From a virus (Duplodnaviria > Heunggongvirae > Uroviricota > Caudoviricetes), in IMG/VR virus record IMGVR_UViG_2740892369_000023: a stretch of DNA of 4,269 nt. One strand, written 5' to 3'. The notes below the pieces were generated by a model. It ran no database searches. It saw only the letters and a program-made list of their open reading frames with translations, and was not told where the DNA came from. The stretch's first letter is position 1, and the number at the start of each line of letters is the position of its first letter. Positions 1 to 4,269 of the stretch are shown piece by piece. A program made the position numbers and the translations under genes.

Positions 1-43
1 TCATCAGATGGCTGCTTAAAAAAAGAACAAATGGTAGTGTCCG

Positions 44-985
44 CTATTGCCAGTACACCTCATTGTCACTGGAAGGCGGGTGGCCAACGCCAATCTTGTA
101 GGCCGGGACACGGAACACCGAACAGACAATTTCAGCCGTCATTTTCAGTTGTTCCACCGTCTGCGCATCCACCGGTGAAAACGTCGTGGGGCTGTATTTT
201 GCCCCGTTGCTCAGTATGGCCGTCTTCCCGGCATTTTCGCCCGTATATCCGCTGTCCCAGTTCCCCTTCAGTTTTTTCGCGTTTTCTTCCGTAATACTGC
301 CGGGGACCTCAATCACGCCTGATGGTCGCCCGCCATTTCTGAAAAAATACGTCGAATTTGCCTGAATATGATGCCCCTGCATGGCGGCCAGTCCTGCGGC
401 ATACACCGGCGGCAGCCCCACAAGCGGATGAAAAAAACAGTTAAAACGGTCGTGGATCACCTCCCGGGCAGGCACCGTCACCGACTCTGTGATCCCACAG
501 TTCCGGTCCGGCGTGATGCGGTAGAACACGTCGCCGTCATCCGCCACCAGAGGTTCAACCCGGTTCCAGTCCAGAATACGCAGTTCTTTGATCTGCCCCC
601 GGGGGTTGCGGATTTTCAGCACCACCGTATTGCCGTGACGCAATTTGGAATTCAGCCACAGTTCAAAAAACTGGATGCGATTCTGCTGCGCATTAGGACG
701 ACGACAGAGACGGGCAGTATCTCCCTGCCGCTTTTCCCGGCGTATTCCCTGTACATCAGTCTGCATCAGGCGAAGCCGCATTTTGGCGATATCCTGGGAT
801 ATCAGCGAAATGCATGAAAACACCGCGTGAAAGGACAAAACGGTTTCCGGATCGGCTTTCACACCCTGCTGCCAGGCACCGGCAAAAGGCTCAGCCACCG
901 CCTGAAACAGGGACCGCCAGCCCACTTCTCTTACGTCACGTCCTGATTTCTGGTTTTTTCGGGTTCGCCGCAAAAGGTTCCACAT
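44..985 (-). CDS. Phage portal protein, HK97 family (possibly C-terminally truncated)
   Basis: 313-codon minus-strand ORF. ATG at 983..985 is preceded by GGAG (994..997) with an 8-nt spacer; an in-frame stop lies upstream at 1001..1003. Portal-family motifs: PETVLSFHAVFSCISLISQDIAKMRLRLMQ, DGDVFYRITPDRNCG, STYFFRNGGRPSGVIEVPGSITEENAKKLKGNWDSGYTGENAGKTAILSNGAKY, and SPVDAQTVEQLKMTAEIVCSVFRVPAYKIGVG. Stop TAG at 44..46, only about 12 residues after the last motif. Confidence 0.85.
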   Translation of the reverse strand: MWNLLRRTRKNQKSGRDVREVGWRSLFQAVAEPFAGAWQQGVKADPETVLSFHAVFSCISLISQDIAKMRLRLMQTDVQGIRREKRQGDTARLCRRPNAQQNRIQFFELWLNSKLRHGNTVVLKIRNPRGQIKELRILDWNRVEPLVADDGDVFYRITPDRNCGITESVTVPAREVIHDRFNCFFHPLVGLPPVYAAGLAAMQGHHIQANSTYFFRNGGRPSGVIEVPGSITEENAKKLKGNWDSGYTGENAGKTAILSNGAKYSPTTFSPVDAQTVEQLKMTAEIVCSVFRVPAYKIGVGHPPSSDNEVYWQ

Positions 986-1152
986 TCGCCATGCTCCGCA
1001 TCACGTTTCTTTTTCTGACCTGCCGGACGTCGCGCTGTGATGTACTCCGCCTTCCCCAGGCGAACCAGCACCTCCGCACACGGCTGTGCCACATCACGGA
1101 TATCCCCGGCCCGGGCATCATGCGTGCCCTGCAGATACTGGATTTTTGCCAT
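931..1152 (-). CDS. Hypothetical small protein (73 aa) in the capsid-portal gap; uncertain
   Basis: Minus-strand ORF MAKIQYLQGTHDARAGDIRDVAQPCAEVLVRLGKAEYITARRPAGQ... with coding-like GC-rich codon choice in its first ~45 codons. It has no convincing Shine-Dalgarno at proper spacing, overlaps the portal start by about 55 nt in another frame, and I recognise no family. It could be a remnant. Confidence 0.2.
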   Translation of the reverse strand: MAKIQYLQGTHDARAGDIRDVAQPCAEVLVRLGKAEYITARRPAGQKKKRDAEHGECGTFCGEPEKTRNQDVT

Positions 1153-1196
1153 CTGTTACTGCGGGAAGCTCGCGCCTCCCGCCCTCCTCATCAGAC

Positions 1197-2558
1197 TCAG
1201 CCACCGGACGCAGTTCCGTAGTTCACACCGGTGATCACCGCCACTGCCGCGGTACGGCGACGACGCCAGTTGATCCAGCGCTCCGCACGGATGGCCACGC
1301 TGCCGGTCTGAAACATGGAGACCAGTTCCACCGGTGACGGTGTGCTGCTGTCGCTGGTCGGTTCAGACTGCATCTCCAGTGACGCTTCACGGGACATATC
1401 CACCGCCACACCGCCGTCATCAGCCAGATAAATATCCGGTGCATTCACCAGTACCAGCTGGTCACCCACATACTGGGAGACAATCACCGGCAGCCCCTGG
1501 AAGGTCCCGCCCAGCAAGGTCATGTCCGGATATTCCTTCTGCCCCAGCGCATTTTTACGCATGGACAGCGCCAGGGCATTGGTGCTGGACATCAGCCAGA
1601 CCGCACCGGTGGGCTGCAGATTTGCCGTCACAAACTGGCCAAACGCGGCCTCGGCATCCGCATCCGGGTTACCGGTTGATGCCGTGCCCTTCACATCATG
1701 GGTGATGGACGCCGGGGAGACATCCGCCACCGCCGCTTTTTTCGGGTCCACAAAGTCTGTGTCCAGACGCGCCACCACCGCTTCCGCCAGCGCATTACGG
1801 ACCAGTGCATCAGCAGCCGGACTGGAAAAACGGATCAATTCTTCCGTCAGTACCGCAATGGCCGACACTTTCGCATGACTGAAGGTGATGGATTCAAAAT
1901 CAAACTTCGTCAGGGGTCTGGCCTTACCCTCACCCACCCAGCCGGCAGCACCACCGGACACCTGGGCATGCACGCGGATATTGAACGGCACCTGACGAAG
2001 TGCAGGGATCCCGCCCTGACCAAATCGCCCGATAATGGTCTGCGGACGCAGGTAATCAATAAAGTCCTGCGCATATTCCTGGTATTCAGACAGGCTGCCT
2101 GCCCACTGCGGGTCCGTGGTGGTCCCTGCCCCCACCGCCGATTTCAGGACATGATGCAGACGGCTGTCATCCGGATACTGACGACGGGCCACTTCCAGGG
2201 CTTCAGAGCGGACACCTTTAGCCGCGGCCAGTGATTTGGCAAAGCGGGCGAAACCAATCCCCTTCTCCAGTTTCTGCTCAACACGGATCACCGGCGCTGA
2301 AGCCACCGTGGCCACATTCCCGTTACCGGCCTGTTTCACCGGCTGTGCCGTGGCGGCCTTACTGGTTTCCAGTTCACGCAGACGCTTCAGGTGCGCATCC
2401 ACCTGACGGATTTCCGCTGCGGTGTTGTCGTAGTGCTCTTCCTCTTCCACATCCAGTGTGCGGCCTTCCTCTGCGGCTTTGTTCATGATCTCCTCAAGGG
2501 AGGCTGCCAGCGCCGCACGCTTGTTTTCAAAACTTTTAATCTGTTCACCAGTATTCAT
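1197..2558 (-). CDS. Possible nested in-frame product: major capsid protein with its delta/scaffold domain, initiated internally at Met193 of the fusion ORF
   Basis: In-frame ATG at 2556..2558 (minus strand) preceded by AGGA (2569..2572, 10-nt spacer), sitting in a local AT-rich patch (2556..2600) that looks like a former intergenic region. The N-terminus MNTGEQIKSFENKRAALAASLEE resembles a capsid-protein delta-domain start. Hypothesis only; the full-length fusion may be the sole product. Confidence 0.3.
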   Translation of the reverse strand: MNTGEQIKSFENKRAALAASLEEIMNKAAEEGRTLDVEEEEHYDNTAAEIRQVDAHLKRLRELETSKAATAQPVKQAGNGNVATVASAPVIRVEQKLEKGIGFARFAKSLAAAKGVRSEALEVARRQYPDDSRLHHVLKSAVGAGTTTDPQWAGSLSEYQEYAQDFIDYLRPQTIIGRFGQGGIPALRQVPFNIRVHAQVSGGAAGWVGEGKARPLTKFDFESITFSHAKVSAIAVLTEELIRFSSPAADALVRNALAEAVVARLDTDFVDPKKAAVADVSPASITHDVKGTASTGNPDADAEAAFGQFVTANLQPTGAVWLMSSTNALALSMRKNALGQKEYPDMTLLGGTFQGLPVIVSQYVGDQLVLVNAPDIYLADDGGVAVDMSREASLEMQSEPTSDSSTPSPVELVSMFQTGSVAIRAERWINWRRRRTAAVAVITGVNYGTASGG

Positions 2559-3134
2559 TGCTGACTTTTCCTTATGAAAAGAGGTTATTGACTGTGCCGA
2601 AGCGCCGGCAGAAGATGCGATTTTCACCACCGGTTTCCGGTTGCCGGACGCGGCAGAAAACGGGCGGTCGTAAGATTTAATGGTCCGGATGGTGCATTCC
2701 GCATTCGCGGGCACGGTGACGGCAGACACCTCCATCAGCTCCCAGCGCAGAAAATGCAGTCCGCCTCCGTCCAGATAAGTGTATTCATGGGGCCGGAAGC
2801 CCACAGAAAGCCCCCTGACCAGCCCGGTCTTAATGGCAGCCCAGGCCTCATCCAGCCGGGCTGCCATCTGGGAGGGCATCCCCGGCTCCGGCTTCACCAG
2901 CATTGCCGTGATTTCCAGCCCTTCCCTGACCCGACGCACCGTACACTGGCCTACAGGGCGGGAATGGTCATGCTGCCAGAGAAACGGGATCGTACTGCCA
3001 AACTCCGCCCCCTCCGGCTCCAGGATGTCACCATCCCGATCCGGAGAAGGCGTTGACGCAATCCCGGTGATCACCCGTTCATCCTCACTGAAGGATTTCA
3101 CCGTCAGCAGGGAACAGGCCCGTTTAAGAGTCAC
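1197..3134 (-). CDS. Prohead maturation protease (HK97 gp4-like, peptidase S78/U35) fused in frame to a scaffold/delta-like linker and an HK97-fold major capsid protein
   Basis: 645-codon minus-strand ORF. Start is GTG at 3132..3134, preceded by AGGAGG (3140..3145) with a 5-nt spacer; no in-frame ATG exists between the terL stop and this GTG. Residues 1-160 carry prohead-protease motifs: GIASTPSPDRDGDIL, WQHDHSRPVG (His codons at 2970..2972 and 2964..2966) and RGLSVGF (Ser codon 2805..2807), then EVSAVTVPANAEC. Residues 193-260 are charged and coiled-coil-like (EQIKSFENKRAALAASLEEIMNKAAEEG ... LKRLRELETSK). Residues 330-645 look like an HK97-type capsid protein (QTIIGRFGQGGIPALRQVPFNIRV, SAIAVLTEELIRFSSPAADALVRNALAEAVVARLDTDFV, and a C-terminal SVAIRAERWINWRRRRTAAVAVITG). 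Stop TGA at 1197..1199. Confidence 0.9.
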   Translation of the reverse strand: MTLKRACSLLTVKSFSEDERVITGIASTPSPDRDGDILEPEGAEFGSTIPFLWQHDHSRPVGQCTVRRVREGLEITAMLVKPEPGMPSQMAARLDEAWAAIKTGLVRGLSVGFRPHEYTYLDGGGLHFLRWELMEVSAVTVPANAECTIRTIKSYDRPFSAASGNRKPVVKIASSAGASAQSITSFHKEKSAMNTGEQIKSFENKRAALAASLEEIMNKAAEEGRTLDVEEEEHYDNTAAEIRQVDAHLKRLRELETSKAATAQPVKQAGNGNVATVASAPVIRVEQKLEKGIGFARFAKSLAAAKGVRSEALEVARRQYPDDSRLHHVLKSAVGAGTTTDPQWAGSLSEYQEYAQDFIDYLRPQTIIGRFGQGGIPALRQVPFNIRVHAQVSGGAAGWVGEGKARPLTKFDFESITFSHAKVSAIAVLTEELIRFSSPAADALVRNALAEAVVARLDTDFVDPKKAAVADVSPASITHDVKGTASTGNPDADAEAAFGQFVTANLQPTGAVWLMSSTNALALSMRKNALGQKEYPDMTLLGGTFQGLPVIVSQYVGDQLVLVNAPDIYLADDGGVAVDMSREASLEMQSEPTSDSSTPSPVELVSMFQTGSVAIRAERWINWRRRRTAAVAVITGVNYGTASGG

Positions 3135-3146
3135 ATCAGCCTCCTG

Positions 3147-3172
3147 AAAATAAAAAAACCGCCGCAGCGGTT
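3147..3172 (-). terminator. Possible weak intrinsic terminator or attenuator between terL and the protease-capsid gene
   Basis: On the minus strand, just after the terL stop: CCGC-TGCG-GCGG (4 bp GC stem, 4 nt loop, extendable by two A-U pairs; plus coordinates 3157..3172) followed immediately by TTTTTTTATTTT (plus 3147..3158). Short stem, so it is weak at best. Confidence 0.3.
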
Positions 3173-3197
3173 CATGATGGTTACAGGGTGAGCAGGG

Positions 3198-4269
3198 TTA
3201 TATGAAAAAAACCTCATACGCTTTCTTTTTCGGTTCCGGATTCAGGGACATCAGGGACACCGCATTGAAGAGCGCCATCAGCGGGTCAATTTTTCCCCGT
3301 CCGCTGGCCTGTTTGGTGATAAGAATGGCGTTACCTTTAGGCTCCACCCGGGCATTACCGACACACCAGGCCATCAGGGGCTGATCACCGTGAATCAGCA
3401 CCCCTTCAGCCAGTTTGCGCTCGGTGGTTTTGATGGCCCCGCCCAGCTTCCAGCCCTGGCTTATCCCCACCACACTCTCATCGGGGATCCCGGCTTCCGC
3501 CAGTGAATCCAGAATCTGCCCCACACCTGACGGGTCAATACCGATATGATCCAGTAACTCAGCCTCATGAATACGACGCACATACTCCGCCACTTCCGCC
3601 GTGTCATCCCCGACCCGACGGACAATCGTCATGTCTCCACAGGCCACAAAATCCTGAAACCGGGATGCCTCACTCTTCCGTCTGACCACCGCGGTTTCAT
3701 GCACCCAGGCATGGCCCCAGCCCAGCCATTCGCGGGTTTCCCTGTCACGGCCAGTCACGTACATTCCCAGCAGATCATCCAGGCCCCCGCCGTCAATCCC
3801 CACCGTCACCACATCAGCGCGCTGCAGGATATCGTCCAGGCTGACGCGCCTGCCCTGCTGCTCCCAGAAATCCGCGCCCGCCCAGCGGTCAGAACGCAGG
3901 GCAAGACCGATTTCCACATTGGCGTGTTTTGACATGACGCCACGAAATGCTTCCTCACCAGCCTCCCGGGCTTTACGGTACTCCCGGTACAGAAAGGCCT
4001 CATCCACCGAATAACCGAGATTCGGGTTAACCATGGCGAGGTTTTCCATCAGCAGGTGAGCCCCGCTTTCCACCATTTCAGGAGGATGCTCAAAAATCAC
4101 CGGCAGAAAGTGCGGATCATGAATTTTGCCGTCACGGACATCCCGGGCATACTGCAGTTTCTGTCTGAACACCCCGGCGGGCGGTTCATTCGACTGGGTG
4201 GTCGTATACACCACAAACCCTTCCGGACGGGAGGCCAGCCCGCCGATGGCTTCACGTAGCATGTCTTCC
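3198..4269 (-). CDS. terL: Phage terminase large subunit, C-terminal portion (partial; 5' end lies beyond the window edge)
   Basis: Minus-strand ORF open to the window edge; the Met at 4262 in the ORF track is only the first in-frame ATG, and the two codons upstream of it (to 4268) are also sense codons. The translation has terminase large-subunit character: an acidic nuclease-domain stretch (VVTVGIDGGGLDDLLGMYVTG, then HIGIDPSGVGQILDSLAEAG) and a typical C-terminal tail (LMAWCVGNARVEPKGNAILITKQASGRGKIDPLMALFNAVSLM). The N-terminal ATPase (Walker A) region is not in the window. Stop codon TAA at 3198..3200. Assignment is by recalled motifs, not a search. Confidence 0.85.
   Translation of the reverse strand, partial: EDMLREAIGGLASRPEGFVVYTTTQSNEPPAGVFRQKLQYARDVRDGKIHDPHFLPVIFEHPPEMVESGAHLLMENLAMVNPNLGYSVDEAFLYREYRKAREAGEEAFRGVMSKHANVEIGLALRSDRWAGADFWEQQGRRVSLDDILQRADVVTVGIDGGGLDDLLGMYVTGRDRETREWLGWGHAWVHETAVVRRKSEASRFQDFVACGDMTIVRRVGDDTAEVAEYVRRIHEAELLDHIGIDPSGVGQILDSLAEAGIPDESVVGISQGWKLGGAIKTTERKLAEGVLIHGDQPLMAWCVGNARVEPKGNAILITKQASGRGKIDPLMALFNAVSLMSLNPEPKKKAYEVFFI

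Follow-up and report, generated by a model that had tools for sequence, protein, structure and literature searches.

Head gene order and IS600 truncation in a defective prophage of Escherichia coli with the portal gene downstream of a protease-capsid fusion

The head genes on a 4,269-nt stretch of DNA from a tailed virus (IMG/VR record IMGVR_UViG_2740892369_000023) stand in an order that departs from the textbook, but that has long been deposited in a prophage type ranking among the commonest in Escherichia coli strains that produce Shiga toxin (STEC). The whole stretch is called the window here, and gene coordinates are positions within it. All long open reading frames (ORFs) that match a protein family are on the minus strand, where the order is the 3' part of the gene for the large terminase subunit (terL), a gene for a 645-aa fusion of prohead protease and major capsid protein, a 73-aa ORF, and a portal ORF. 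The first-pass annotation of the sequence had described co-directional terL, protease-capsid and portal genes with the portal downstream of the capsid, and Pfam confirms all three genes on the minus strand; its suggestion of a divergent head module also holds, in that the module belongs to a distinct HK97-type lineage with the portal after protease and capsid. We are highly confident that this layout is old, stable and inherited within a clade of its own among HK97-type head modules, and not the product of a recent event. The module itself is already known and annotated.

The window is 100% identical to positions 3303174-3307442 of NZ_CP027599, the chromosome of E. coli strain 97-3250, and the same identity is found in a few genomes sister to 97-3250. 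The prophage at this locus carries, upstream in transcription order, Q-region genes, tRNAs, holin, lysozyme, an antirepressor, Rz, an HNH endonuclease, the small terminase subunit gene (terS) and an intact terL, as well as replication-side genes. On the 3' side of the portal fragment, connector and tail genes are absent; the insertion sequence IS600 comes first, and type III effector genes after it. In all probability, this E. coli prophage is a defective, BP-4795-like lambdoid element, and the window covers part of its late (head) operon.

Distribution of the gene order

The block from nt 63 to 4269 is contiguous in 92 of the 93 phage records that match it, at 93-100% nucleotide identity, and also in 1,243 complete E. 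coli genomes. Carriers include BP-4795, 2851, 1717, YYZ-2008, JLK-2012, the WGPS phages, vB_EcoS_phi330 (phi330), and dozens of Stx1a/Stx2c phages. Over the block, identity is 93.7% for BP-4795 and phi330, 98.7% for WGPS2 and 99.8-100% for Stx1a phages; many Stx1a- and Stx2c-converting phages are 99-100% identical to the window from nt 63 onward. [quoted passage not shown] The order is the same in WGPS2 (Sawaravirus) and Stx1_699. Phi330 (Pankowvirus), whose genome was Sanger sequenced, is a siphovirus that forms plaques, depends on OmpC and has a head of 55 nm and a tail of 145 nm (PMC12502783). Among the prophages predicted in STEC, the BP-4795-like kind is reported to be the most frequent (PMC6986202).

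A wider search, in which an alignment of the fusion protein was used to query one genome per GTDB species, returned 32 loci. Thirty were long enough for the order to be read, and in 30/30 of these the fusion is followed by the portal on the same strand, with terL upstream in 28/30. The hosts, which extend to alpha- and betaproteobacteria, comprise many Enterobacterales as well as Proteus, Arsenophonus, Pseudomonas, Halopseudomonas, Pseudorhodoferax, Methylobacterium, Haematobacter and Brucella, together with one metagenome-assembled genome labelled Prevotella. The order terL, protease/capsid, portal also recurs in isolated phages of Salmonella (FSL SP-016), Pseudomonas (IME307), Stenotrophomonas (SOVA965) and Burkholderia (vB_SBP9). 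The last of these keeps the order terL-protease-capsid-portal even though its protease and capsid are encoded by separate genes; the position of the portal is therefore independent of the fusion. Conversely, fusions with the canonical order are found in Gifsy-2 and in the actinophage Anseraureola, and portals no more than ~30% identical sit in canonical modules, for example those of Moraxella Mcat12 and HK97. Within the single genus Detrevirus, IME307 (L043) has the fusion with the portal after the capsid, whereas D3 (L046) has a canonical portal-ClpP-capsid arrangement, a difference which implies that the whole head cassette has been exchanged as a unit. The portal-after-capsid layout is very probably an ancient form of the HK97 head module, cassette-like in character, that extends from Enterobacterales to alphaproteobacteria, independently of whether protease and capsid are fused. 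The searchable literature yielded no explicit description of this order or of the maturation of the fusion.

Among distant relatives, the capsid-portal interval appears to be an insertion hot spot, as in one case does the terL-capsid interval (inserted-gene intervals at L025 10824-15009, L033 11024-11849, L004 5888-7284 and L018 7252-9010; L numbers denote the loci compared). Some of the inserted genes share a fibre-like N-terminal motif, TLGxVIKTxYEAExNTNAxTDAEKxKL.

The IS600 lesion and competing explanations

The portal gene of the window (44..985, minus strand) is truncated: native codons 1-308 occupy nt 62/63..985, and five IS600-derived codons follow, ending in a stop at 44-46. Its product matches Pfam Phage_portal at E=1e-60, over profile positions 2-241 of 321 only, and its last five residues (EVYWQ) and the stop derive from IS600; the annotation pipeline PGAP labels this copy 'incomplete; missing C-terminus'. 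An undamaged 454-aa homologue covers profile positions 2-321, scores 365 bits against TIGR01537 portal_HK97 (cut-off 112), aligns with HK97 gp3 along its whole length at 28% identity, and matches the solved portals 9lbn and 8cez. Window positions 1..62 (plus strand) are the right terminal 62 bp of IS600, a 1264-bp element of the IS3 family, ending ...CAGTACACCTCA; intact relatives align only from nt 63. A transposase coding sequence is annotated immediately upstream of this IS600 end, and the element at the source locus (L001 10799-12062) matches the copy in L002 over 1264 bp at 99.8% (blastn). Here IS600 has no 3-bp target duplication (TTA | TTG), whereas the L002 copy has one (AAT|AAT).

The corresponding locus of strain 12689 (L041) preserves the undamaged layout, namely effectors, IS600, tail fibres, J, tape measure, major tail, connectors, portal, orf73 and capsid, with IS600 already in place between an effector gene and a tail-fibre gene. 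Comparison of L001 (10799-12066) with L041 (21400-39307) shows losses on both flanks of IS600, of ~190 bp and of ~16.45 kb; the larger loss takes in the rest of the portal, a repeat-protein gene, the connector genes and all tail genes, and a 4-nt TTGT microhomology lies at the portal/IS600 junction. Among 5,426 complete E. coli genomes, just 9-10 have precisely this junction, whereas the uninterrupted sequence is common. The copy in the window is a recently decayed, defective prophage, and as such is unable to build tails or any head with a portal; that terS, terL and the capsid fusion are still intact is due only to how recent the lesion is. At the source locus, a second prophage end (exo-xis-int, dicB, ydfC) and a type III secretion system effector cluster (espM2, espW, nleG, DUF1076) adjoin the defective prophage (L001 1-5400 and 5782-10797), an arrangement that suggests a composite or rearranged prophage region in 97-3250.

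Could the gene order itself be a product of this damage, or of a faulty assembly? It does differ from the orders of HK97, Gifsy-2, D3, Moraxella Mcat12 and the actinophage Anseraureola, and the locus has visibly suffered from IS600. However, the lesion lies ~920 bp away, at the opposite end of the portal ORF, and an identical junction, down to the 73-aa ORF overlapping the portal start, is present in the 92 phage records and the 1,243 complete genomes; the same order at the junction is seen in phi330 and at all 30 distant loci. A local rearrangement, or an assembly misjoin between capsid and portal in this genome, is accordingly extremely improbable. The misassembly across 986..1196 considered in the first-pass annotation is contradicted by the recurrence of the capsid/portal junction in hundreds of independent assemblies, the Sanger-sequenced phi330 among them, and the reading of the order as non-canonical through rearrangement gives way to the finding that it is the norm for a well-described phage group. 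Decay had been proposed as well. The prophage is indeed decaying, with its portal cut by IS600 and ~16.4 kb deleted, but neither decay nor rearrangement accounts for an order that is invariant in intact, virion-forming phages (BP-4795, phi330, WGPS2, FSL SP-016 and IME307). In the same way, the portal is short in this IS600-cut copy, at 308 native residues, but shortness is not a trait of the module, in which the full length is 454 aa. The oddities that had first attracted attention are explained by the IS600 lesion and by the edge of the window.

The block might alternatively belong to a capsid-forming phage satellite, which would build its own head and hijack the tails of a helper. Such a reading could appeal to the presence of head genes without connector or tail genes in this copy, and to the insertion sequence and effector genes downstream. 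But satellites of the cf-PICI (capsid-forming phage-inducible chromosomal island) kind are small elements with their own integrase/replication and head genes that lack terL and tail genes by design, and the element considered here has terL, terS, HNH, lambdoid lysis genes, an antirepressor, the Q-region, tRNA genes and replication-side genes. Its missing tail genes are explained by the deletion mapped against L041, and all intact relatives encode a complete lambda-like tail. We assign the satellite a negligible probability; synteny across the phage records, the complete genomes and the isolated phages rules it out along with misassembly and strain-specific rearrangement. A different proposal concerns the fate of the remnant: HNH, terS, terL and the fusion, beside a dead portal, may be retained as a recombination reservoir or as an in-trans supplier to other lambdoid prophages of the genome. 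The surviving genes are uninterrupted and 100% identical to those of functional Stx1a phages, the allele is common to 9 genome records, and the head module occurs in multiple prophages of STEC genomes, in which BP-4795-like prophages are those predicted most often (PMC6986202). Near-identity is, however, equally expected from a recent deletion without selection, and the allele is rare among complete genomes, so that retention of this kind seems improbable.

The fusion, its neighbours and a proposed assembly pathway

The fusion gene (1197..3134, minus strand) opens with GTG behind an AGGAGG Shine-Dalgarno sequence, and its 645-aa product combines a prohead protease, a delta/scaffold-like region and a major capsid protein. 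Pfam matches identify Peptidase_S78 (PF04586) at residues 48-152 (E=6e-8, 33.3 bits, cut-off 21) and Phage_capsid (PF05065) at residues 386-635 (E=7.5e-15); the NCBIfam model TIGR01554 major_cap_HK97 matches residues 204-584 (E=1e-22, 80.8 bits, cut-off 27.5), and phrog_617 (major head protein) matches at E=1e-259. TIGR01543 scored 45 on the fusion protein, below its cut-off of 59. Homologues of 644-648 aa with both domains are found across Enterobacterales. Two database proteins, each from a single contig, carry terL+fusion or fusion+portal domains in one ORF (P0002, 1079 aa; P0003, 784 aa); these joined ORFs are most likely frameshift or assembly artefacts and not real fusions.

The S78 (HK97 gp4-like) serine protease domain spans residues ~21-156 (2667..3074, minus strand) and is 30% identical to HK97 gp4 (BLASTP, E=3e-8), with His55 and Ser110 at the catalytic positions. 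His55 aligns with gp4 His65, and Ser110, in a GLSVGF motif, with gp4 Ser114; both are invariant in the alignment of homologues (A1). His65 and Ser114 of HK97 gp4 are reported to be catalytic. A helical, coiled-coil-like linker follows at residues ~195-335 (2130..2552, minus strand), a putative delta/scaffolding domain that would be removed at maturation. The TIGR01554 match begins at fusion residue 204, equivalent to model position 3, such that the delta-domain part of the model covers the linker, and an AlphaFold2 model built on a 10-sequence alignment places a long helical hairpin at residues 195-261, the sole region with a predicted local distance difference test score (pLDDT) of 70-76. The putative cleavage position is placed only through a weak alignment of TDPQWAGSL in the fusion (from residue 340) with SDADSAGSL in the cleavage region of HK97 gp5 (from residue 107).

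The 73-aa ORF between the capsid and portal genes (931..1152, minus strand) is conserved (phrog_829, E=8e-39) and overlaps the portal start by 55 nt; it occupies the apparent gap at 986..1196, of which 44 bases remain non-coding. Profile searches gave no Pfam or NCBIfam match for it. Nearly every related locus nevertheless has a positional homologue behind the capsid gene (L007-L036; in SOVA965, L004 5637-5888), with a family motif of the form ..Y.G....G..F...RDA..L...G.A.Y.. and then a lysine/arginine-rich C-terminal tail. On the other side of the fusion, the 63-nt gap between terL and capsid (3135-3197) contains a terminator-like hairpin (3156..3173, minus strand; GAACCGC-TGCG-GCGGTTT) with a T-run, which was found by a terminator scan and is visible in the sequence, just 5' of the AGGAGG and GTG start of the capsid gene. 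Across the whole window the scan returned 3 sites against 3.6 expected by chance; only this intergenic site is taken as real, because it is conserved. The hairpin (ACCCGC-loop-GCGGGTTTTTT) is kept in 20/21 aligned relatives, comprising phages and prophages of Enterobacterales, Proteus and Pseudomonas, with compensatory changes at two pairs of the stem, and is absent from alpha- and betaproteobacterial loci and from vB_SBP9. The terL gene beyond it is represented by its 3' part (3198..4269, minus strand; residues ~197-553 of 553), with a TerL_nuclease domain (Pfam, E=3.6e-10) and 23% identity to HK97 gp2 (E=1e-11). Its 5' end lies outside the window; in the source genome the gene is whole, at 553 aa, and preceded by HNH and terS, and the cut reflects the window edge and not biology.

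Intact relatives carry a further gene, lost from the window (L003 12339-13562, minus strand; BP-4795 ORF59 at L006 3177-4562; within L041 37642-40226). In at least 11 loci and phages of Enterobacterales, its start and the stop of the portal gene overlap as ATGA. The product of this further gene contains ~54-aa tandem repeats (IPxPxDGxDYDP...IPVPADGKSITPDD...) that vary in copy number, giving 407 aa or 461 aa, and its C-terminus resembles CBM5/12 (CBM_5_12), which we keep only as a hint. TetR_C_35, FliG_N and similar Pfam matches on the 407-aa ORF all fell below their cut-offs and were disregarded. The SOVA965 gene after the portal (L004 8573-9484) encodes collagen triple-helix repeats. The ~407-aa repeat protein is a candidate portal- or neck-associated fibre. 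PGAP routinely merges the intact portal and this next ORF into a 'frameshifted' pseudogene, even in intact prophages, and several submitters call the post-portal gene 'portal', even in intact inducible phages; this labelling is probably a systematic mis-annotation, with the risk that working prophages in a group of medical importance are counted as defective. A programmed -1 frameshift from the portal into the next ORF, an idea that arose from the PGAP label and from the 859-position phrog_2271 profile, was considered and rejected: the E. coli junction AGA AAA TGA could slip, but no slippery heptamer is shared across genera. Conserved across genera is only the overlap of stop and start, as ATGA, as ATGAATGA or with a TTG start that has a Shine-Dalgarno sequence of its own, and translational coupling of the two genes is the simpler reading.

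The native order of the lineage is HNH, terS, terL, the hairpin, the fusion of S78 protease, delta/scaffold and putative HK97-fold capsid, the small basic protein and the 454-aa portal, followed by the probably translationally coupled repeat protein (~407 aa), head-tail connector, head closure, gp10 and tail genes. By homology to HK97, we infer the following steps of assembly and maturation for intact modules. Antiterminated RNA polymerase would read through the late transcript, and the fusion protein and a portal dodecamer would co-assemble into a procapsid with the N-terminal protease domains inside. The protease (His55/Ser110) would then cut off itself and the helical delta-like domain, approximately residues 1-335, to leave a mature capsid protein of ~310 aa. 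HNH, terS and terL may cut and package cos DNA; the HNH gene stands ahead of terS, an arrangement also found at the HK97 cos region, and HNH reportedly has a role in HK97-type packaging. Connector and tail proteins, the latter forming a lambda-like tail, would complete the siphovirus particle. In the window copy such a pathway would be broken at the portal, where the IS600-adjacent deletion took portal codons 309-454 and the ~16.4 kb downstream.

Several observations weigh against this reconstruction. The AlphaFold2 model of the fusion is poor (mean pLDDT 40.9, predicted template modelling score 0.25) and does not confirm the folds. Pairwise BLASTP of the capsid domain against HK97 gp5 was not significant, such that the assignment rests on profile matches, and profile-profile comparison of the A1 alignment with gp5 gave no signal, the alignment being shallow (Neff 1.3). 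Self-cleavage, the cleavage site and the T-number are drawn from HK97 and the domain order only, the searchable literature having yielded no maturation experiment. Finally, the 'frameshifted' label of PGAP leaves the exact native portal product debatable, even though different genera share the ATGA overlap of the two ORFs. It is conceivable, if rather doubtful, that the layout of terL, hairpin, protease/capsid, small basic protein, portal and coupled repeat/fibre-like protein constitutes a distinct, proteobacteria-wide type of head module in which the 73-aa and ~407-aa proteins have assembly roles; no description of either protein was found in the searchable literature.

Comparison with known head modules

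The closest likeness is to the BP-4795-like phages (BP-4795, WGPS6/phi330 of Pankowvirus, WGPS2, 2851, 1717, YYZ-2008 and the Stx1a/Stx2c phages), which share with the lineage of the window the order HNH, terS, terL, fusion, 73-aa ORF and portal. The window agrees with their head module in identity and collinearity; it differs in that its portal is cut by IS600 and everything downstream is gone, so that the complete portal, connector and tail set is missing.

With the head module of HK97 itself (gp1-gp5 and the HNH protein gp74), the lineage has in common an HK97-family portal, an S78 protease with its His and Ser, capsid profile matches, terL, and an HNH gene beside terS, and the connector genes of intact relatives resemble gp6, gp7, gp10 and gp11 of HK97 at 43-75% identity. 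Capsid, protease and portal are thus all of HK97 type. The canonical arrangement, in contrast, is absent: HK97 has the order terL-portal-protease-capsid with separate protease and capsid genes, whereas the lineage of the window has the two fused and the portal after the capsid. Two extra genes, of 73 aa and ~407 aa, flank the portal, unlike in HK97.

Single genes that join protease and capsid are known elsewhere. Gifsy-2, a lambdoid prophage of Salmonella, has a 'tripartite capsid gene' (Effantin et al. 2010, Virology 402:355), in which one gene likewise comprises a protease, a scaffold-like region and the capsid protein. In Gifsy-2, however, the protease is annotated as Clp-type and the order is the lambda-like terL-W-portal-fusion, whereas the window has an S78 protease and a downstream portal, and its gene is therefore not of the Gifsy-2 type, in which the fused Clp-type protease, scaffold and capsid come after a portal of the lambda B type. 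The actinophage Anseraureola has the canonical terminase-portal-fusion order, in hosts and sequences unrelated to the lineage of the window. A protease-capsid fusion in one siphovirus gene has also been reported, and is common among small-genome siphoviruses according to the authors (PMC9671004).

More distant phages nevertheless reproduce the arrangement of the window. SOVA965 differs in having extra fibre-like genes and a putatively intein-bearing terL; its 967-aa terminase (within L004 457-3360) has LAGLIDADG/HINT matches that suggest the intein, and three reading frames are annotated over its protease/capsid region, perhaps owing to sequencing frameshifts. Together with vB_SBP9, IME307 and FSL SP-016, it shares with the lineage of the window the sequence terL, protease/capsid, small ORF(s), portal and connector, with portals that are 36-69% identical.

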